Of a stretch of DNA of 64,000 bases, positions 1,977-61,037 are shown piece after piece (the stretch's first letter is position 1; every line of letters starts with the position of its first letter). The notes below the pieces were generated by a model. It did not search any database and had not been told where the DNA came from. It was given only the letters and a program-made list of their open reading frames with translations. The stretch covers positions 2,343,333 through 2,407,332 of the forward strand of contig OZ241976.1 of NCBI GenBank assembly GCA_965204205.1, written 5' to 3'. The translations under genes and the position numbers were made by a program. Origin of the DNA: an uncultured Candidatus Binatia bacterium. GTDB taxonomy: Bacteria; Desulfobacterota; Binatia; UBA9968; JAJDTQ01.

Positions 1977-2136
1977 GTGTCCTGTCCGGTCAATTAGCAC
2001 AATAATCTGCGGGTCTTTTTCGCCGTCGGCGGCGTTGCTCTTCCTCGCGTGGTGCCCGCCACAGCTCGTCATCGCGCCTTGCCGACAACGAAAAATCCTC
2101 CGCATATTATCATGCCAATTTAACCGGACAGGACAC
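1977..2136. repeat. 160-bp MITE-like element with 14-bp perfect terminal inverted repeats (GTGTCCTGTCCGGT ... ACCGGACAGGACAC), abutting IS5 copy A
   Basis: TIRs read directly at 1977-1990 and 2123-2136. The internal 2030-2136 segment recurs at 40025-40155. Confidence 0.4.
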
Positions 2137-3437
2137 TAGCAGGCCGTGGAAAAACCCACGGATTTGAGTGTTGGTGACTGATGCAAAGGGAATCGGACCC
2201 TCGACGGGCTGGGATAGAGGTCATTCGCACGCCTTTTCATGCCAACGACCGTGGCGCAGACGCACGCCTCCACAGGAAGTGTGGTCACGTGCCCACTCCC
2301 AAGGTGCGCAGCCGCACCAGGTTGTAGGCCGCGAAGGTCAGGGTGAACTGGAAGTCCACCTTCGGAAGCCCCCGATGCTTGAGCTTGCGCAACCCGCCGA
2401 CGGTCTTGGCCCATCCGAAGGCTTCCTCGATCCGCTTGCGCACTCGCTGGCTCTGAGTGTAGCCAGCGTGGCGGGTGGTGCGGCCGTCAATGGCCGAACG
2501 CCGATTGGTGTCGTTCTGCGCCACATGAGGACTCGCGTTCGCCCAGCGCAACCCCTCGACAAAGTCACGGGTATCGTACCCCTTGTCCGCACCCACGGTG
2601 AGCCGGCCCTTGCCGGGTCGCCCCTCGATCATGGACAGCGCCGACTCCCGCTCAGCCCGGCCGCTGGCCTGGGTGGTACGCGTGTCGACGATCAGTCCAT
2701 GGCGGTTGTCCATCAAGGCATGCCCCAGGTAGCACAACTTCGCTTCCTGCCCCTTGCCCTTGCGGTACTGCAGGGCCTGCGGGTCGGTGGTGGACTCATG
2801 GGTCGCATTGCTGCGCTTCTCGCCCCGGAAGTCCTCCTCGGCATTGCGTCCGCCGCCGCCCCGCGGTCCCTCGCCCCCTTTGGGGCGAAACGACTTCATC
2901 GACGCCCAGGCCTCCAGCAGCGTCCCATCGACACTGAAGTGCTCATCCGACAAAAGCCGGGCGTCACGCGCCTGCACCAGGATCTTCGCAAAGAACTCCC
3001 GGGCGATGTCCGAGCCGATCAACCGCTCCCGGTTCTTCGTGAACGTCGAGTGGTCCCACATCGCCTCGTCCATCGACAGCCCCACAAACCACCGGAACAA
3101 GAGGTTGTAGTCCAGTTGCTCCACCAACAGCCGCTCGCTGCGGATCGAGTAAAGCACCTGCAACAGCAACGCCCGCAGCAACTGTTCCGGCGCGATCGAA
3201 GGCCGCCCCGTGTGCGAGTACATCGCCTCCAACTCCCCGGACAGATCTTCCAGCGCCCGGTTCACCATCTCCCGGATCGGTCGCAACGGATGGTCCTTGG
3301 GAACACGGGCTTCCGGCGATACATAGCTGAACATGCCTTCTTGACGCGGATCAGTGCCTCTCATCGACTCCTCCGTCCCAGTACGAACATACAAAATATG
3401 TACCCGCGTCAGACGGACTTTTTCAACAACCTGCTAG
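2137..3437 (-). mobile_element. IS5-family insertion sequence, copy A (about 1.29 kb body flanked by CTAG at both ends)
   Basis: Near-identical to the element at 56236..57537. Imperfect terminal IRs CAGG(C/T)(C/T)GT(G/T)GAAAA. CTAG is present at 2137-2140 and 3434-3437, consistent with IS5-group YTAR targets and 4-bp duplication. Confidence 0.85.
2285..3394 (-). CDS. IS5-family DDE transposase (DUF772 N-terminal region plus DDE_Tnp_1)
   Basis: 369-aa ORF. The N-terminus MFSYVSPEARVPKDHPLRPIR is characteristic of IS5-group transposases. A second copy in the window differs at about nine residues. Confidence 0.9.
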   Translation of the reverse strand: MYVRTGTEESMRGTDPRQEGMFSYVSPEARVPKDHPLRPIREMVNRALEDLSGELEAMYSHTGRPSIAPEQLLRALLLQVLYSIRSERLLVEQLDYNLLFRWFVGLSMDEAMWDHSTFTKNRERLIGSDIAREFFAKILVQARDARLLSDEHFSVDGTLLEAWASMKSFRPKGGEGPRGGGGRNAEEDFRGEKRSNATHESTTDPQALQYRKGKGQEAKLCYLGHALMDNRHGLIVDTRTTQASGRAERESALSMIEGRPGKGRLTVGADKGYDTRDFVEGLRWANASPHVAQNDTNRRSAIDGRTTRHAGYTQSQRVRKRIEEAFGWAKTVGGLRKLKHRGLPKVDFQFTLTFAAYNLVRLRTLGVGT

Positions 3438-5520: not shown

Positions 5521-6375
5521 ATGAGCCTGACCGTCAAGCCCGTCTGCCCCGCCGTCGGCGCCGAGATCGAGGGCCTGGATCTGCGCGAGCCGCTGACCGA
5601 GGAAGCCCGTGAACAGATCCTGGACGCCTTTCACGAGTACGTGCTGCTGCTGTTCCGGGGACAGGAACTGACCGAGGATCAGCAGACGGCTTTCGCCACC
5701 ACCTTCGGCGAGTTGGGCAAGCGCACCGTGGGGGCCCGTTTCGTCAAGTCCCCCAAGGACACCTACGCCAACCCGGTGATGATGGTCACCAACCGCAGCG
5801 ACGACGGACCCACGGGCAACACCGCCTCCTTCGGCGACGGCGAGATGTGGTTCCACCACGACACCTGCTTCTACCCGGTGCCCAACATCGTCACCATGCT
5901 GTACGGCATGGAGGTCACCACCAGCGGCGGACTGACGCGTATCGCGAACATGTACCTGGCGTACGACAGTATCCCCCGGGAACTGCGCGACCGGCTGGAG
6001 GGACGAACCGTCCTGCAGGTTTACGACTACAACCGCTACCGCATCGACCCCAACGTGGACATGGCCGGCGCCCGAAGCCACGTGCAGCCCATCTTCATCA
6101 CCCACCCGGTGACCGGCAAGAAAGCGCTCTACGTGAACCGGACCATGACCGCGCACATCGAAGGGATGGACCGCGCCGAGAGCGACGCCATCCTGGACCA
6201 ACTGTTCGAAATCGCCGAGGACGACCGCATCGTTTACGACCACCAGTGGCGGGTGGGCGACCTGCTCATGTGGGACAACCGCTGCTCCACCCACGCGCGC
6301 ACCGACTTCCCCGCCGAGGAGGCGCGAATCCTGCGGCGCTGCACGGTGGCCGGGAAGGAGCCGGTCCACGCGTAG
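5521..6375 (+). CDS. TauD/TfdA-family Fe(II)/2-oxoglutarate-dependent dioxygenase, paralog 1
   Basis: 284 aa. HHD...H metal-binding pattern and an R near the C-terminus. AGGAGG RBS upstream. 55-60% identical to the next gene by eye. Confidence 0.85.
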   Translation: MSLTVKPVCPAVGAEIEGLDLREPLTEEAREQILDAFHEYVLLLFRGQELTEDQQTAFATTFGELGKRTVGARFVKSPKDTYANPVMMVTNRSDDGPTGNTASFGDGEMWFHHDTCFYPVPNIVTMLYGMEVTTSGGLTRIANMYLAYDSIPRELRDRLEGRTVLQVYDYNRYRIDPNVDMAGARSHVQPIFITHPVTGKKALYVNRTMTAHIEGMDRAESDAILDQLFEIAEDDRIVYDHQWRVGDLLMWDNRCSTHARTDFPAEEARILRRCTVAGKEPVHA

Positions 6376-6405: not shown

Positions 6406-7263
6406 ATGAGCTTGAACACAAGACCGCTGTCACCGGCCCTGGGAGTCGAGATCCTCGGACTGGACGTGAGCGAGCCGCTGGATGAAAAGGTCCGGGACGA
6501 GATCCTTGCGGAGTTCTACCAACACGTCGCGCTGCTGTTCCGCGGCCAGGACCTCACGGTGGAGCAGCAGAACCGCTTCACCACCACCTTCGGCGACATC
6601 GGCAAGCGCACCATCGGCCCCCGTCTTCGGAAATCCGCCGACGACATCTACACCACGCCGGTGATGGTGGTGAGCAACATCAAGGAGAACGGCAAGCCGC
6701 TCGAGGGGTCCTCGGCCAACGGCGACCGGGAGATGGGCTTCCACCAGGACACCGCCTTTCACGAGATCCCCGACCACGTCACCATCCTGTACGGCATCGA
6801 GGTGTCGTCCCACGGCGGCCATACCATGGTGACCAACCAGTACGCCGCCTACGACAGCGTCCCGGCCGACCTCAAGACGAAGCTGGAAGGATGCAAGGTG
6901 CTGCAGGTCTACGACTACCAGCGGCACACCGTGGGTCCCGACCTCGATCTGAGCGGCGCCCGCTATTTCATGCAGCCCATCTTCATCACCCACCCGGTCA
7001 CGGGCCGCAAGGCGCTGTACGTGAACCGCATGATGTCCGTCCACATCGAGGGCATGAACCGGGCCGAGAGCGACGCCATCCTGGGCGACCTGTTCGACAT
7101 CACCGAGGACCCGCGCTTCAGGTACGAGCACGTGTGGGAGGTGGGAGACCTGCTGATGTGGGACAACTTCTGCTCGATCCACGCCCGCACGTTCTACCCG
7201 GACGAGGAGCGCCGGCTGCTGCGGCGCACCACCGTGGCCGGCAAGGGCCAGTTGCACGCGTAA
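6406..7263 (+). CDS. TauD/TfdA-family Fe(II)/2-oxoglutarate-dependent dioxygenase, paralog 2
   Basis: 285 aa tandem paralog of 5521..6375. CAGGAG RBS upstream. Confidence 0.85.
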   Translation: MSLNTRPLSPALGVEILGLDVSEPLDEKVRDEILAEFYQHVALLFRGQDLTVEQQNRFTTTFGDIGKRTIGPRLRKSADDIYTTPVMVVSNIKENGKPLEGSSANGDREMGFHQDTAFHEIPDHVTILYGIEVSSHGGHTMVTNQYAAYDSVPADLKTKLEGCKVLQVYDYQRHTVGPDLDLSGARYFMQPIFITHPVTGRKALYVNRMMSVHIEGMNRAESDAILGDLFDITEDPRFRYEHVWEVGDLLMWDNFCSIHARTFYPDEERRLLRRTTVAGKGQLHA

Positions 7264-55076: not shown

Positions 55077-56174
55077 ATGGCGGAAGCCGCAACTCTCGAA
55101 GAAATCAAGGACCGCATCCGCAAGCGCGTGGGCAGGCGGAGCCCGTTCCACCTGATGGATGCGGCGGAAGCCGAAGGCGTGCTGGCCGAGCTCAGCAGCC
55201 TCGAAGCCGACGCCTGGGCGGAAGCCTGGAGCAGACCCGGCGCACGCTGGCAGAAGACCGCGAAGGAAGCAGAGGAAAAGGGAAACGCCGATGAGGCCAG
55301 GGACGCCTACTTCCAGGCCGCCGCCTTCTACGGCACCGGCCGCCATCCCTTCCCCAGCTCTCCCGGCAAGCAGGAAGCCTACCGCAAGACCATCGAGAAC
55401 TACCTCGCCGCGGCGCGCTACTTCGATCCTCCGCTGGAGCGCATCGCCCTCCCCTTGCGGGACAAGGACGTGGTGGGCTACCTGCGCCTGCCCGCCAAAC
55501 GGCCGGCACCGCTGATCATGCACTGGGGAGGCATCGACAACTGGAAGGAGGATCGCCACAACTTCGTGGAGTCCATGCTCGCCGAGGACTGGGGCTGCTT
55601 CATCATGGACAGCCCCGGCACCGGAGAGTCGCCGGTGCCGGCGTCGGATACCGCCCACGAGGTCTACAGCACCGCGCTGCACTACCTTGCCACCCGGCCC
55701 GAGGTAGACCCGGCCCGCATCGCCGCCCTGGGCGCCAGCTTCGGCGGCTACTGGTCCACCAAGCTGGCCCACGTGGAGCCCGACCGGCTGTGCGCCGCGG
55801 TCAACTGGGGCGGCGGCATCCATGGCTTCTTCCAGCCCGAGTGGCAGCAGCGGTCCCGCAACGCCTCGTCCTACCTCTTCGACCTCATCGAGGCCCGCGC
55901 CAACCTCTTCGGCAAGCGGACCTTCGAGGAGCTGTGCGAGGTCATGCCCATCCTCTCCCTCAAGGACCAGGGTCTGCTCGACAAGCCCTGCGCCCCCATG
56001 CTGCTGGTCAACGGCAAGGACGACCTCCAGGTCCCCATCGACGACTTCTTCATGCTGCTGGAGTGCGGCAGCCCCAAGGCCATGCGCCTCTTCCCCGGCG
56101 GCCACATGGGCGAGTCCCCGGACGTGTTCCCGACGATACTGCGGTGGCTGCATAGAGAGCTGGACGGGGAGTGA
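55077..56174 (+). CDS. Alpha/beta hydrolase (FrsA/DUF1100-like esterase)
   Basis: GASFGG nucleophile elbow, a C-terminal D and H (GGHMGE). GGAGGA RBS. A decayed duplicate of its last roughly 190 bp lies at 60833..61025. Confidence 0.75.
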   Translation: MAEAATLEEIKDRIRKRVGRRSPFHLMDAAEAEGVLAELSSLEADAWAEAWSRPGARWQKTAKEAEEKGNADEARDAYFQAAAFYGTGRHPFPSSPGKQEAYRKTIENYLAAARYFDPPLERIALPLRDKDVVGYLRLPAKRPAPLIMHWGGIDNWKEDRHNFVESMLAEDWGCFIMDSPGTGESPVPASDTAHEVYSTALHYLATRPEVDPARIAALGASFGGYWSTKLAHVEPDRLCAAVNWGGGIHGFFQPEWQQRSRNASSYLFDLIEARANLFGKRTFEELCEVMPILSLKDQGLLDKPCAPMLLVNGKDDLQVPIDDFFMLLECGSPKAMRLFPGGHMGESPDVFPTILRWLHRELDGE

Positions 56175-56235
56175 ACGGACACCGTGGACCCTGGCAAGGC
56201 AAGCATGAACGCGCACGTTGCTGGAAAGGCGAAGA

Positions 56236-57537
56236 CTAGCAGGTTGTTGAAAAGGTCCGTCTGACGCGGGTACATATTTTGTATGTTCGTACTGGGACGG
56301 AGGAGTCGATGAGAGGCACTGATCCGCGTCAAGAAGGCATGTTCAGCTATGTGTCGCCGGAAGCCCGTGTTCCCAAGGACCATCCGTTGCGACCGATCCG
56401 GGAGATGGTGAACCGGGCGCTGGAAGATCTGTCCGGGGAGTTGGAGGCGATGTACTCGCACACGGGGCGGCCTTCGATCGCGCCGGAACAGTTGCTGCGG
56501 GCGTTGCTGTTGCAGGTGCTTTACTCGATCCGCAGCGAACGGCTGTTGGTGGAGCAACTGGACTACAATCTTTTGTTCCGTTGGTTTGTGGGACTGTCGA
56601 TGGACGAGGCGATGTGGGACCACTCGACGTTCACGAAGAACCGGGAGCGGTTGATCGGCTCGGACATCGCCCGGGAGTTCTTTGCGAAGATCCTGGTGCA
56701 GGCGCGTGACGCCCGGCTCTTGTCGGATGAGCACTTCAGCGTGGATGGCACGCTGCTGGAGGCGTGGGCGTCGATGAAGTCGTTTCGCCCCAAGGGGGGC
56801 GCGGGACCGCAGGGCGGCGGCGGGCGCAACGCCGAGGAGGACTTTCGGGGGGAGAAGCGCAGCAATGCGACCCATGAGTCTACCACCGATCCGCAGGCAC
56901 GGCAGTACCGCAAGGGCAAGGGGCAGGAGGCGAAGTTGTGCTACCTGGGGCATGCCTTGATGGACAACCGCCATGGACTGATCGTCGATACGCGCACCAC
57001 CCAGGCCAGCGGACGGGCTGAGCGGGAGTCGGCGCTGGCCATGATCGAGGCGCGACCCGGCAAGGGCCGGCTCACCGTGGGTGCGGACAAGGGGTACGAT
57101 ACCCGTGACTTTGTCGAGGGGTTGCGCTGGGCGAACGCGAGTCCTCATGTGGCACAGAACGACACCAACCGGCGTTCGGCCATTGATGGCCGCACCACCC
57201 GCCACCCTGGCTACGCTCACAGCCAACGGGTGCGCAAGCGGATCGAGGAAGCCTTCGGATGGGCCAAGACCGTCGGCGGGTTGCGCAAGCTCAAGCATCG
57301 GGGGCTTCCGAAGGTGGGCTTCCAGTTCACCCTGACCTTCGCGGCCTACAATCTGGTGCGGCTGCGCACCTTGGGAGTGGGCACGTGACCACACTTCCTG
57401 TGGAGGCGTGCGTCTGCGCCACGGTCGTTGGCATGAAAAGGCGTGCGAATGACCTCTATCCCAGCCCGTCGAGGGTCCGATTCCCTTTGCATCAGTCACC
57501 AACACTCAAATCCGTGGGTTTTTCCACGGCCTGCTAG
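56236..57537 (+). mobile_element. IS5-family insertion sequence, copy B (inverted relative to copy A)
   Basis: Same termini as copy A, with CTAG at 56236-56239 and 57534-57537. One mismatch to copy A over the 80-bp left end compared. Confidence 0.85.
56279..57388 (+). CDS. IS5-family DDE transposase
   Basis: 369 aa. About nine residue differences from the copy at 2285..3394. Confidence 0.9.
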   Translation: MYVRTGTEESMRGTDPRQEGMFSYVSPEARVPKDHPLRPIREMVNRALEDLSGELEAMYSHTGRPSIAPEQLLRALLLQVLYSIRSERLLVEQLDYNLLFRWFVGLSMDEAMWDHSTFTKNRERLIGSDIAREFFAKILVQARDARLLSDEHFSVDGTLLEAWASMKSFRPKGGAGPQGGGGRNAEEDFRGEKRSNATHESTTDPQARQYRKGKGQEAKLCYLGHALMDNRHGLIVDTRTTQASGRAERESALAMIEARPGKGRLTVGADKGYDTRDFVEGLRWANASPHVAQNDTNRRSAIDGRTTRHPGYAHSQRVRKRIEEAFGWAKTVGGLRKLKHRGLPKVGFQFTLTFAAYNLVRLRTLGVGT

Positions 57538-57597
57538 CAGTCCCGCACCTACCCGTGGGGACTCTCCGCACATAGGTCTTGCAGAAAGGTGACCCTG

Positions 57598-58965
57598 ATG
57601 GAGCAAATCACCCTCAAGAATTTCCGTTGCTTCCGAGAAGAACAAAACGTCCGTTTGGCTCCGCTCACACTGCTGGTAGGCGAGAACAGCACTGGAAAGA
57701 CATCCTTCATGGCCATGATTCGGACGTTGGCCGATGTCGCGTATTCCCATCGTGTACCGGATTTCAAGGAAGAACCCTACGACCTTGGTAGCTTTGACGA
57801 GATTGCTCACCACCGGGGTGGTAGAGGCGGTCGGGCAGAAGCCTTCGAAGGAGGGTTCAACGTCGCCTCAAGGACTGGAGCCGGCACAGGACACGAAACG
57901 GCCCACCGCCAACCCTATGCCTTTGCGGCAACTTTCCAGAAAAAGGGGACCGCACCGACGCCGGTGAAAATGCGGCTATCTCACGCAAACGTATGGGTCG
58001 AGGTGAGTCTGGAGGGCAGTGAGTGGCAAGTCCGCTTCGGAACGGCCAAGGGGGCCTGGCAATCTTCCCATCCCCTTCCCAACGTGTTGGAGGGCGAATA
58101 TGGTTTGGGTATACCCCTGTTCTATTTCCTCAGTCTAAGGGCAACATTTGAGGACCGTGAAAGCAAACCTCGTCCGACCGAGATGCACGTCGGCGAATCA
58201 CCTACCACCGAAGATCATCAACAGGTCACGCGGCTTGTTGAGAGCTATAGACGTGCCGCCTATAGCTACGACGAAGACAGACCTTACGCCAGCGCTCCGG
58301 TTCGTTCCACGCCACAGAGGACTTACAATCCCTCCCGTCCGACACGAGATCCAGAAGGCGACTACATTCCTATGTATCTTGCCAGAATGTACTTCCAGGA
58401 CCAAAGCAAGTGGAAACATCTACGAAATGCGCTTGAGAATTTTGGGGAGGCAGCGGGTCTGTTTGATGAAATATCCATCAAGCAACTAGGACGAAGGGAC
58501 AGTGAGCCCTTTCAAGTACAGATCAGGAAATCCGGCACCAAGCGCAAGGGGCCTCCACGCAACCTTATCGACGTAGGATACGGTGTCAGCCAAGTACTAC
58601 CGGTGATCACAGAACTACTACGCTCGGATGCTCCGTCTATGTTCTTGCTGCAACAACCCGAAGTTCATCTTCACCCCAGCGCTCAGGCGGCGCTAGGTAG
58701 TCTTTTCTGCCAAATCGCCTCGCCGGACCGTAAGTTGGTCGTCGAGACACATAGCGACCACCTCCTTGATAGAGTCCGTATGGACGTTCGTGACAGCAAA
58801 GGATCGCTGAGACCGGACGACGTTTCAATCCTGTTCTTTGAACGCGGTGACTTGGAAGTAAACATCCATTCCCTACGGCTTGACCAAGAGGGGAATGTTC
58901 TAGACGCACCGCCCAACTACCGAAAATTCTTTTTGCAAGAAACTCAGCGTTCTTTGGGAATGTGA
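57598..58965 (+). CDS. ABC/AAA_21-type (OLD/SMC-like) ATPase with long insert between Walker A and Walker B and a short C-terminal tail domain
   Basis: N-terminus MEQITLKNFRCF. Walker A GENSTGKTS. Walker B/D-loop LLQQPEVHLHP. H-loop ETHSDHLL. RBS AAAGGTGA before ATG 57598 (an alternative GTG lies at 57589). Visibly lower GC than the flanks. Confidence 0.8.
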   Translation: MEQITLKNFRCFREEQNVRLAPLTLLVGENSTGKTSFMAMIRTLADVAYSHRVPDFKEEPYDLGSFDEIAHHRGGRGGRAEAFEGGFNVASRTGAGTGHETAHRQPYAFAATFQKKGTAPTPVKMRLSHANVWVEVSLEGSEWQVRFGTAKGAWQSSHPLPNVLEGEYGLGIPLFYFLSLRATFEDRESKPRPTEMHVGESPTTEDHQQVTRLVESYRRAAYSYDEDRPYASAPVRSTPQRTYNPSRPTRDPEGDYIPMYLARMYFQDQSKWKHLRNALENFGEAAGLFDEISIKQLGRRDSEPFQVQIRKSGTKRKGPPRNLIDVGYGVSQVLPVITELLRSDAPSMFLLQQPEVHLHPSAQAALGSLFCQIASPDRKLVVETHSDHLLDRVRMDVRDSKGSLRPDDVSILFFERGDLEVNIHSLRLDQEGNVLDAPPNYRKFFLQETQRSLGM

Positions 58966-59444
58966 GCATGTGCGGAATCGTTGATGCGGACATCGCCCCT
59001 GAAGTGTTCGGGTCTAATCCCACTGAGGCTGGCGTGAAGTTCCTTGAGTGGCTTATTTCCGGACCCGGCAACTTGGTTGTGGGTGGCAAATTGCTGGACG
59101 AACTCCTCAAGACGCCAGCGACAAACTGGCTACCGCAACTCCAACTCGCTGGGAGAATGACTACCAAGAACAAGACTGATGTAAGCGAACGAACAGATCA
59201 GCTCTTAAGAGATCGCTCTTGTAAGTCGAATGACGCGCATGTAATTGCCTTGGCCCAGATCAGCGGCGCGCGCCTATTGTACACGGATGACGGTAAGTTG
59301 ATAGAGGACTTCAAAAATCGGCGCTTAATCGTCGGTCCACAGGGCAAAATATACCCCGCACGTGGAGATGGGAGGTTTCGTGACGGGAGCTTCAGTAAAA
59401 GTCACGAACGGCTCCTGAAACAGAAAAATTTGTGCCACGGGTAA
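58962..59444 (+). CDS. Small protein with putative PIN-like nuclease fold, translationally coupled to the ATPase
   Basis: GTG start overlaps the ATPase stop (GTGA); an alternative ATG lies at 58968. Acidic residues at positions typical of a PIN domain (IVDADI; E about 20; NDAHVIALA; LLYTDDGKL). Not verified by search. Confidence 0.5.
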   Translation: MSMCGIVDADIAPEVFGSNPTEAGVKFLEWLISGPGNLVVGGKLLDELLKTPATNWLPQLQLAGRMTTKNKTDVSERTDQLLRDRSCKSNDAHVIALAQISGARLLYTDDGKLIEDFKNRRLIVGPQGKIYPARGDGRFRDGSFSKSHERLLKQKNLCHG

Positions 59445-59455
59445 AGGGCTCCACT

Positions 59456-60777
59456 CAGTAGTGTCCGACACATTTCATAGCAAAACCAGTTGGTTACGGT
59501 CACCGGGGCTTTCTGGCGGCGCGGGCGTACCGGTAAGTAGCTGAATCAAGGGGACTTTTTCGAAAGGCGTAACGCTGAGGATCTGTAGCATCACATGCAA
59601 GGAGAGGTCGAGATTGAGACGTTTCTTGATGATAGCAACCAGCACGTAAACGGCGACGGCGATCCAGATTTGGCTTTTGACAGCGTTCTCGGAGGTGCCA
59701 AAAAAGCGCTTGATGCGGAGATGTTGTTTGATCCACTTGAAGAACAACTCCACTTGCCAGCGGCTCTTGTACAGAGCGCACACGCTCAGGGCGGGGATGG
59801 CGAAGTGGTTGGTCAAGAAGACCAGTGTTTTGCCTGTATCGGGGTCTTTGAAGCGGATGCGACGGAGCCTGTCGGGATAGGCGCGGCGGGAGTCGATCAC
59901 GGTCAACCGGACTTGCTGGTCGCAGATAAGCCCGGTGGTGCGATCGACGGGGGCAGAGTAGATCCTTTTGCACCGGAGGTTGGATTTGGCACGAGTGACG
60001 AAGAAGGCGCCCGTGCGGTGCAGGACATGCAGCCGTTGGAAATCGAGGTAGCCCCGGTCCATCACGTAGAAGGCGCCCGGTTCGGGCAACAGGACGTCCA
60101 GCACGTGGACATCGTGCAGTTTTCCGTCCGAGATGAAGATAAAGGCCGGGATGGCGCTGCGCAGGTCCAGCAGCGTATGCAGCTTCACGGCCGCTTTGGT
60201 CTGGCGGAAAGGCGCCCATGGAAAAAGCGACAAGCACAAGTCGATGGTGGTGGAGTCCAGGGCATAGACCGTGTTCGCCAAGTCCACGGCCAACGACTCG
60301 TGCGCATACAGTCGTCGCGCCATGCGGATCAGCGCCTGAGGAACTCGCAGTGAATGCGCCAGTCCCGCGCTTCGTTGGCGTCGGCCAGGTTGCTGCGCGT
60401 CACATTGCCTCGGATACCCAAGTGATAGAGCTTGCCCGGCTGTGCCCCAAGACACGCTTCGATATCCCGCAGGCTCTCCCGGTAGGTCAGTTGCGCAACC
60501 GCCATGCACAGAAACTGATCCAGACACCGAAAGGTACGCACGTTGAAATCCCCTCGGTACGTCCTCACCAGGCGACGAAACGTATGCCATGGAGCAAACT
60601 CCATCACCTGGGCGAACACAAGCTTTCCTGCGTGCATGGCCACCTCCCGGATCAAACCGGGAAGTCTGCCAAACTCCGATCTCGCCGTCCAAATCGGTTA
60701 CACCCTCAAAACTCACAAATATCGTGTCATTTCAGTGGGTTACAGGTTGACGCGAGCCAACGTGTCGGACACTACTG
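59456..60777 (-). mobile_element. IS4-family insertion sequence with 16-bp perfect terminal IRs (CAGTAGTGTCCGACAC) and 9-bp target-site duplication GGCTCCACT
   Basis: IRs read at 59456-59471 and 60762-60777. Direct repeats at 59447-59455 and 60778-60786. Confidence 0.8.
59475..60655 (-). pseudogene. IS4-family transposase (DUF4372 N-terminal region plus DDE_Tnp_1), frameshifted
   Basis: N-terminal 108-aa ORF (60329..60655) carries MHAGKLVFAQVMEFAPWHTFRRLV. The C-terminal frame (59475..about 60340) carries the YKSRWQVELFFKWIKQHL YREK signature. The two frames meet near 60330-60345. Confidence 0.75.
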
Positions 60778-60832
60778 GGCTCCACTACCAATCCATAACG
60801 AAACGGGTGTGTTGGGACTATGACAGATTGCA

Positions 60833-61025
60833 TCGCTTCGGAGATGTCAATGCCCATCCTCTCCCTCAAGTACCAGGGCCTGCTCGACAAACCCTGCGCC
60901 CCCATACTGCTGGAGTGCGGCCGCCCCAAGGCCATGGCCTCTTCCCCGGCGGCCACATGGGCGAGTCGCCGGGCGTGTTTCCGACGATACTGTGGCGGCT
61001 GCACCGGGAGCTTGACGGGGAGTGA
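60833..61025 (+). pseudogene. Decayed 3' fragment of an alpha/beta-hydrolase gene (paralogous remnant of 55077..56174)
   Basis: Roughly 85-90% identity by eye to 55951..56174. A 54-bp deletion is bounded by ATGCTGCTGG direct repeats in the intact gene, plus a 1-bp deletion (frameshift). No start codon or RBS. Confidence 0.7.
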
Positions 61026-61037
61026 AAGAAAGACACC

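Follow-up and report, generated by a model that had tools for sequence, protein, structure and literature searches.

The stretch of DNA analyzed here, referred to as the window, comprises 64,000 nucleotides of contig OZ241976.1 (positions 2,343,333 to 2,407,332 of the forward strand; assembly GCA_965204205.1) from an uncultured Candidatus Binatia bacterium. Toward its right-hand end it contains a cassette of two co-directional genes, the first for a predicted ABC-type ATPase and the second for a small PIN-domain protein, which a first-pass annotation made from the sequence alone had proposed as a candidate defense or abortive-infection module. The features of this locus, in window positions, are as follows.

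56236..57537, plus strand: IS5-family insertion sequence (IS) element (56240-57533) with DUF772 and DDE_Tnp_1 domains; transposase open reading frame (ORF) 56279..57388
57538..59455, no strand assigned: low-GC, foreign segment with the cassette, delimited by GC content, GC content at third codon positions (GC3), and tetranucleotides; it resumes at 60787-60849, beyond the IS4 element
57589..58965, plus strand: gene for the predicted ABC-type ATPase with a DUF3696-like C-terminal tail, similar to NsnB and to the HEC-03 ATPase (ORF list, Pfam, PADLOC, and BLASTP)
58968..59444, plus strand: gene for a VapC-like stand-alone PIN-domain protein of 158 amino acids; a GTG at 58962, overlapping the stop codon of the ATPase gene, is an alternative start
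59447..60786, minus strand: IS4-family element (59456-60777) with a DDE_Tnp_1 domain (2.7e-27); transposase ORF 59475..60716, minus strand
60850..61026, plus strand: decayed 3'-terminal fragment of an alpha/beta-hydrolase gene, with 90-94% identity to 55944-56175

Counted from its GTG codon, the ATPase ORF (57589..58965, plus strand) encodes 458 amino acids. The ATG at 57598 is the more probable start, since an identical protein of 455 amino acids is present in the database and homologues align from residue 2-4. Both ORFs had been described correctly in the first-pass annotation, except that the 456 amino acids given for the ATPase were slightly off. The second ORF (58962..59444, plus strand) has 160 amino acids if started at GTG, and the GTGA stop/start overlap that had been reported is physically there, the TGA stop codon of the ATPase gene occupying 58963-65. 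However, this overlap is probably not used as a start. An ATG follows at 58968, and since 68 of 77 homologues begin at an ATG with "MC...", 2-3 nucleotides (nt) past the ATPase stop, the PIN gene likely starts at ATG 58968 and ends with TAA. The two genes would thus abut tightly, with a 2-nt gap and no overlap.

The ATPase was matched by the Pfam families AAA_15 (7.8e-21) and AAA_21 (4.5e-18), and its AlphaFold model (predicted local distance difference test score [pLDDT] of 70.7) had its best fold matches in Rad50, SMC (5h68), GajA, retron PtuA, and OLD heads. These matches identify the protein as an ABC-type ATPase of the OLD/AAA_15/AAA_21 kind, in agreement with the architecture initially proposed for it. 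Among the PADLOC models, NsnB of the Menshen system was the best match (4.2e-49; residues 4-443 on profile positions 2-330 of 345), followed by PDC-M55A, the HEC-03 ATPase model (7.6e-32), and AriA (3.5e-23), while the GajA and PtuA models scored around e-10 to e-13. PDC-M55, an uncharacterized three-family cassette, was also considered and added nothing. In NCBIfam, the ATPase had only P-loop matches, all of them below threshold, and the PIN protein had no match. A DUF3696-like C-terminal tail had been suspected; the Pfam DUF3696 match is weak and below threshold (E 0.0026), but the extent of the NsnB match bears the suspicion out.

The nucleotide-binding motifs that had been read from the sequence (Walker A, Walker B, and H-loop) are present and were kept in 77 relatives. 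Walker A (GENSTGKTS, residues 31-39), a signature-like GYGVSQ motif (residues 330-335), and the H-loop (ETHSDH, residues 386-391) were invariant among them. Walker B (LLQQPE, residues 353-358) is atypical and has the form hhhQQPE in all 77. The insert at residues 81-232 is hypervariable, with a mean conservation of 0.37; the ATPase cores and the tail (residues 401-458) are conserved at 0.72-0.86.

For the second protein, the Pfam PIN match was just below threshold. Many of its homologues carry PF01850, some are named PIN-domain proteins by NCBI, and its fold is that of a PIN domain, nearest to VapC toxins. Numbered from GTG 58962, residues D91, D110, and D116 do not vary and D8 and E47 hardly vary, all at the positions expected for a PIN active site, so that both the fold and the D/E/D/D set of acidic residues proposed in the first-pass annotation were found. 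In the same numbering, C4, H93, H148, and C158 are also conserved. The PADLOC effector models gave no match to this protein. A dN/dS of 0.26 was obtained against the closest relative, and the copy in the window retains every invariant residue. Longer members of the PIN family were considered as NsnC-like fusions of a PIN domain and a toxin, and this was rejected, as they look like frameshifted, chimeric, or fusion-artifact calls.

The cassette differs sharply in composition from its surroundings. Its GC content is 0.539 in the ATPase gene and 0.520 in the PIN gene, compared with a window mean of 0.658 (standard deviation of 0.031 in 1-kb windows), and the only 1-kb windows below 0.60 GC across the whole window are those of the cassette. 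The GC3 of the cassette genes is 0.56-0.59 versus 0.90-0.93 in the flanking genes, and the tetranucleotide distance between the cassette and the remaining window corresponds to a z of 10.7. A low GC content had been asserted previously from inspection only, and the computed profiles revealed a sharp discontinuity. Because of this difference in GC, GC3, and tetranucleotides, a foreign origin of the cassette by horizontal acquisition is supported. The IS elements on both sides, which had been invoked for the same conclusion, provide no evidence for it, being secondary insertions.

Each of the two IS elements arrived later, as a simple insertion with a target duplication; they flank the cassette and did not deliver it. 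The IS5 element is bounded by CTAG at 56236-39 and 57534-37 and inserted into a 113-bp spacer between the hydrolase and ATPase genes. With IS5 removed, the hydrolase gene precedes the ATPase gene by this spacer, and no gene has therefore been lost upstream of the ATPase. For the IS4 element, the clean 9-bp target duplication described earlier, 2 bp after the stop codon, was confirmed: GGCTCCACT stands on both sides (59447-55 and 60778-86), starting 2 bp past the TAA of the PIN gene. A second IS5 copy at 2136-3437, inverted, 97% identical, and 52.8 kb away, is also bounded by CTAG. The inverted pair could mediate inversion of the intervening segment, and the cassette is located just outside it. 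A composite transposon of the two inverted IS5 copies as carrier of the cassette was rejected, since the cassette lies outside both.

The right edge of the cassette is marked by the hydrolase remnant at 60850-61026, which carries 54-bp and 1-bp deletions relative to 55944-56175. The cassette sits between the intact alpha/beta-hydrolase gene (55077..56174) and this remnant of the 3' end of the same gene. A metagenome contig (L083), 91.6% identical to the window over its 1815 bp, is collinear with it through the ATPase 3' end, the PIN gene, the hydrolase remnant, and a decarboxylase gene, and it has no IS4. This contig thus represents the empty IS4 insertion site, and since the same arrangement is found there, it predates the IS4 insertion. 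One possibility is that the cassette entered by recombination inside the hydrolase gene.

To place the cassette in a wider context, we analyzed its relatives. The PIN family contains 1889 representatives at 50% identity (E <= 1e-3), and its matches among GTDB species genomes number 278, mostly in uncultivated bacteria. The best 80 loci from genome contigs (L001-L080) were taken as the relatives' loci. An ATPase homologue, 45-64% identical, is located directly 5' of the PIN gene in 79 of these 80 loci, which come from many phyla, and the lone exception is cut by a contig end. The gap between the ATPase stop and the PIN start in the relatives is mostly 2-3 nt. A comparison of the ATPase and PIN distance matrices gave a Mantel r of 0.62, the maximum in 999 permutations being 0.18. 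The two genes are strictly paired and co-diverging. Conservation of the neighborhood of homologous pairs had been named as a check by the first-pass annotation. The pair itself is kept and is often found among defense genes; no universally conserved neighbor gene was found across the relatives' loci.

Between 11 and 13 of the 79 modules lie between HmaB (a DUF1156 methylase) and HmaC (a DUF499 ATPase), and the copy in the window is itself outside any Hma system. HEC-01 pairs often occur alongside the Hma-embedded modules, and in Rhodothermales these modules often have another, divergent ATPase-PIN module in tandem with them. These tandem modules (L060, 6512-10456; L067, 6515-10456; L063, 1-3172) are 44-52% identical to the window proteins, and in L060 and L067 both are inside one Hma system. 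Several modules are embedded per single Hma system in L016, L028, L032, L052, and L064 (about 2.5-14 kb), where the gene order is HmaB, HEC-01 pair, ATPase-PIN pair, HEC-01-like ATPase, and HmaC.

With respect to the remaining neighbors, approximately 16 of 75 immediate upstream genes match PADLOC models at 1e-10 and at least 6 of 74 downstream genes are HEC-01-like, while defense models are matched at 1e-10 by approximately 10% of the genes 6.5-9.5 kb away, all three figures being raw counts. Defense-model matches among the neighbors include HEC-01, PDC-S01, restriction-modification methylases, SspH, Cas1, and reverse transcriptase. Those 6.5-9.5 kb away include type I and type III methylases, SspH, Cas1, reverse transcriptase, and PD-Lambda-2; the genes at this distance, meant as a control, show extended islands and offer no clean background. 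One of the closest relatives (L081, 63% identity) is accompanied by an AAA_14/DUF4143 gene, a methylase, a SIR2-Piwi pair, and a ResIII restriction gene, and in another locus (L082) toxin-antitoxin genes adjoin the relative of the cassette.

The hosts are almost all metagenome-assembled genomes, from Latescibacterota, Binatia, Dehalococcoidia, Caldilineaceae, Rhodothermales, Gemmatimonadota, Nitrospirales, and Entotheonella. This set of hosts resembles a marine-sponge symbiont consortium, and the SB06xx bin series has also given sponge-specific Entoporibacteria (PMC7883664). Sharing of the cassette across phyla within one habitat is suggested.

Two described systems are central to the interpretation. 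HEC-03 (Hma-embedded candidate 03) of Pseudomonas cichorii (WP_025259138 and WP_025259137) has two overlapping genes, the first for an ABC ATPase of 461 amino acids annotated as "DUF3696 domain-containing" and the second for a 157-amino acid VapC-like PIN protein (Payne et al. 2024, bioRxiv 10.1101/2024.01.29.577857). It is embedded in Hma, shields Escherichia coli from phages with both genes being required, and is toxic when induced (10.1101/2024.01.29.577857). Menshen comprises NsnA, NsnB, and NsnC (Millman et al. 2022; Li et al., NAR 2025, PMC12065111). NsnA is a ParB-DUF262 protein (plus ParBDB), NsnB is a DUF3696-tailed ABC ATPase, and NsnC joins an inactive N-terminal PIN domain to a C-terminal toxin (PMC12065111). 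According to the model proposed, the DUF3696 tails of an NsnB tetramer are predicted to hold the PIN-like domain of NsnC in a clamp (PMC12065111).

We consider it probable, at roughly 0.7, that the two genes form an intact, horizontally acquired cassette for anti-phage defense or abortive infection, of the type "DUF3696-tailed ABC ATPase plus PIN nuclease," with HEC-03 as its nearest tested relative. The defense role initially proposed is supported by homology to HEC-03 and NsnB and by the defense context of the relatives.

Several observations weigh against this interpretation. The genes around the cassette in the window are metabolic and form no defense island, and the neighbor counts of the relatives are raw, with no true genome-wide background. 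Scans with the PIN family retrieved no relatives on IMG/VR viral contigs or PLSDB plasmids. Both canonical acidic residues of Walker B are missing in all 77 relatives, which makes ATP-driven regulation uncertain; QQ invariably stands where Asp-Glu is expected, and this hints at a switch that binds nucleotide but hydrolyzes it little or not at all. The HEC-03 PIN model, which detects its own P. cichorii protein at 9.4e-86, gave no match at E <= 10 to the window protein and five relatives, and an hhalign comparison of the cassette and HEC-03 PIN profiles was not significant (probability of 4.9%, E of 0.008). The same alignment is collinear and has the four acidic residues in register; the two PIN proteins are alike at the fold level only. 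Finally, a promoter/terminator scan of 57300-59600, where IS5 ends 51 bp 5' of GTG 57589, revealed no sigma-70-like promoter, and expression of the cassette is uncertain because of the nearby IS5 and the lack of a promoter-like site.

Among the alternatives, the one that fares best is that of a toxin-antitoxin or addiction module, in which the ATPase would neutralize a VapC-like toxin in place of VapB and the pair would mainly stabilize mobile or foreign DNA or serve a stress response rather than phage defense. The nearness of the PIN fold to VapC toxins, the tight abutment of the genes, the toxin-antitoxin neighbors in L082, and the toxicity of HEC-03 on induction all agree with it, as does the Pfam description of AAA_21 as "putative AbiEii toxin, Type IV TA system." However, gene order and partner size are unlike those of VapBC, and a DNA-binding antitoxin domain is missing. 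The closest tested system, HEC-03, requires both genes for phage defense, and relatives of the cassette occur within Hma systems and next to other defense genes. Their absence from the plasmid and viral contigs scanned, where addiction modules are frequent, also speaks against it. We therefore judge this explanation unlikely, noting that toxin-antitoxin and defense readings overlap mechanistically.

Much less probable still is that the pair is a degenerate, nonfunctional remnant of Menshen that has lost the NsnA sensor gene and the NsnC toxin domain. The ATPase does have NsnB as its best PADLOC match, its partner is a PIN protein like the N-terminal domain of NsnC, and IS5 lies just upstream of the ATPase gene. 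We considered that IS5 might have severed an upstream NsnA-like gene and rejected this, since the element has CTAG on both sides and lies within the 113-bp spacer; it is a simple insertion, so that no deletion occurred there. Moreover, the same NsnA-less pair recurs in 79 of 80 loci, with no NsnA model among the PADLOC matches of the 75 upstream neighbors, and the D-E-D-D set is kept, unlike in the NsnC PIN domain, under the dN/dS of 0.26 given above. The last alternative, a housekeeping pair for nucleic acid processing (RecF/SMC-like DNA maintenance or RNA maturation) that differs in composition by chance, is scarcely credible given the z of 10.7, the patchy occurrence of relatives across phyla with no conserved housekeeping neighbors, the tandem divergent copies in some genomes, the Hma-embedded relatives, and the confinement of RecF and SMC matches to the Walker A region.

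Returning to the anti-phage cassette, the most likely mechanism can be put forward by comparison with HEC-03, Menshen, PARIS, and Septu. The ATPase may oligomerize, as do NsnB and GajA, which are tetramers of ABC dimers, and its conserved C-terminal tail would keep the PIN protein inactive. The hypervariable insert (residues 81-232) might detect a phage-derived cue, upon which a nucleotide-dependent change would free or activate the PIN domain. Its putative metal site (D8/E47/D91/D110) would then cut RNA, be it tRNA, rRNA, or mRNA, like VapC toxins, and growth of the infected cell would stop.

A more far-reaching scenario, which we offer tentatively and hold to be rather doubtful, is that the cassette family represents a third, as yet unmodeled branch of a DUF3696-ATPase/PIN supersystem. 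In this branch, the clamped PIN domain would still be the active effector, a state ancestral to the inactive PIN adaptor plus fused toxin of Menshen; the ATPase with its QQ motif would be a nonhydrolyzing nucleotide switch, and the family would have spread horizontally among marine-sponge microbes of many phyla.

PADLOC v2 would not call the cassette, because the PIN gene matches no model and the ATPase alone matches NsnB. Defense-finder models that include this family would annotate many "hypothetical" pairs, mostly in uncultivated bacteria. As judged from sequence, the family links HEC-03 and Menshen by combining the same ATPase family with an apparently active PIN partner. A two-protein system is simple enough to probe clamping of a PIN domain by DUF3696 tails, and the cassette could reveal what an ABC ATPase without the canonical Walker B acids does.

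Elsewhere in the window, the tandem genes 5521..6375 and 6406..7263 encode clearly alike proteins of 284 and 285 amino acids that resemble TauD/TfdA-type dioxygenases by eye. They explain a 300-nt direct repeat (76% identity), which looks like an ordinary gene duplication.

The cassette can be compared with several known systems. The first-pass annotation had recognized no named system in the pairing, which does not hold: a DUF3696 ABC ATPase with a VapC-like PIN protein corresponds to HEC-03, represented in PADLOC-DB v2.0.0 by the models PDLC04147 and PDLC04148, and the NsnB-NsnC core of Menshen likewise has an ATPase of this family that holds a PIN-fold domain. The naming is reversed between sources, HEC-03A being the PIN protein and HEC-03B the ATPase in the database, whereas HEC-03A is the ATPase in the preprint. 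Both systems consist of two co-directional genes, ATPase first and PIN second, that abut or overlap (in HEC-03, 322707-324092 and 324079-324552). A DUF3696-annotated ABC ATPase of approximately 460 amino acids and a stand-alone VapC-like PIN protein of approximately 157 amino acids in HEC-03 correspond to the 455 and 158 amino acids of the cassette proteins, and relatives of the cassette are likewise embedded between HmaB and HmaC. The window and HEC-03 ATPases have in common the motifs DVGxGVSQVLP, QPExHLHPS, and E(T/S)HS(D/E)HLL. BLASTP of the window ATPase against WP_025259138 gave an E of 1e-22 at 22% identity over the available length of the HEC-03 sequence; the best stretch spans only residues 269-444, and the NsnB model scores higher. 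Apart from this low identity, the differences from HEC-03 concern Walker B (EQPE in HEC-03 versus QQPE in the cassette), the PIN proteins, which belong to different sequence families, and the hosts, which are Pseudomonas or Burkholderia for HEC-03 and uncultivated lineages for the cassette family. Conserved Cys and His residues occur in both PIN families (C4, H93, H148, and C158 here; C23, C27, C150, and H153 in HEC-03), a C-terminal "LC" motif being part of them in each, and these residues might form a metal site that ties the tail to the core.

The likeness to Menshen resides primarily in the ATPase, which is NsnB-like, with an ABC fold nearest to SMC 5h68 and a DUF3696-type tail. In NsnB, the Walker B "DE" is replaced by "EN," the Q-loop Gln by Arg, and SGG by GxG (PMC12065111), and the cassette ATPase also has the Arg and the GxG together with a noncanonical Walker B. 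The partner in both cases has a PIN fold, the domain predicted to be clamped by the NsnB tails. In contrast, the cassette has no NsnA (ParB-DUF262) gene, the gene upstream of the window ATPase being a hydrolase, and its PIN protein stands alone and keeps D8/E47/D91/D110, whereas the PIN domain of NsnC is inactive and fused to a toxin. Since the Menshen survey was seeded with NsnA, NsnA-less pairs would have been missed by it (PMC12065111).

VapBC modules share the VapC-type PIN fold and the conserved acidic quartet. They differ in that the cassette has no small DNA-binding VapB antitoxin, the upstream partner being an ABC ATPase (455 amino acids in the window) in all 79 loci, and in that the cassette PIN protein is extended at its C terminus by a conserved tail containing Cys and His residues. 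With PARIS (AriA-AriB), Septu (PtuA-PtuB), Gabija (GajA), AbiL, and OLD systems, the cassette has in common an ABC ATPase as sensor or regulator combined with a nuclease effector. The effectors of those systems are TOPRIM/DUF4435 or HNH proteins and not PIN, their ATPases have no DUF3696-type tail, and the ATPase matches to them mainly involve the P-loop and the C-terminal core.

Taken together, the cassette resembles HEC-03 in architecture and context and NsnB in its ATPase, and it is distinguished from both HEC-03 and Menshen by a PIN sequence family of its own and by the QQ form of Walker B. As a divergent and so far unmodeled relative of HEC-03 and Menshen, it adds to a type of bacterial immunity that is already known.

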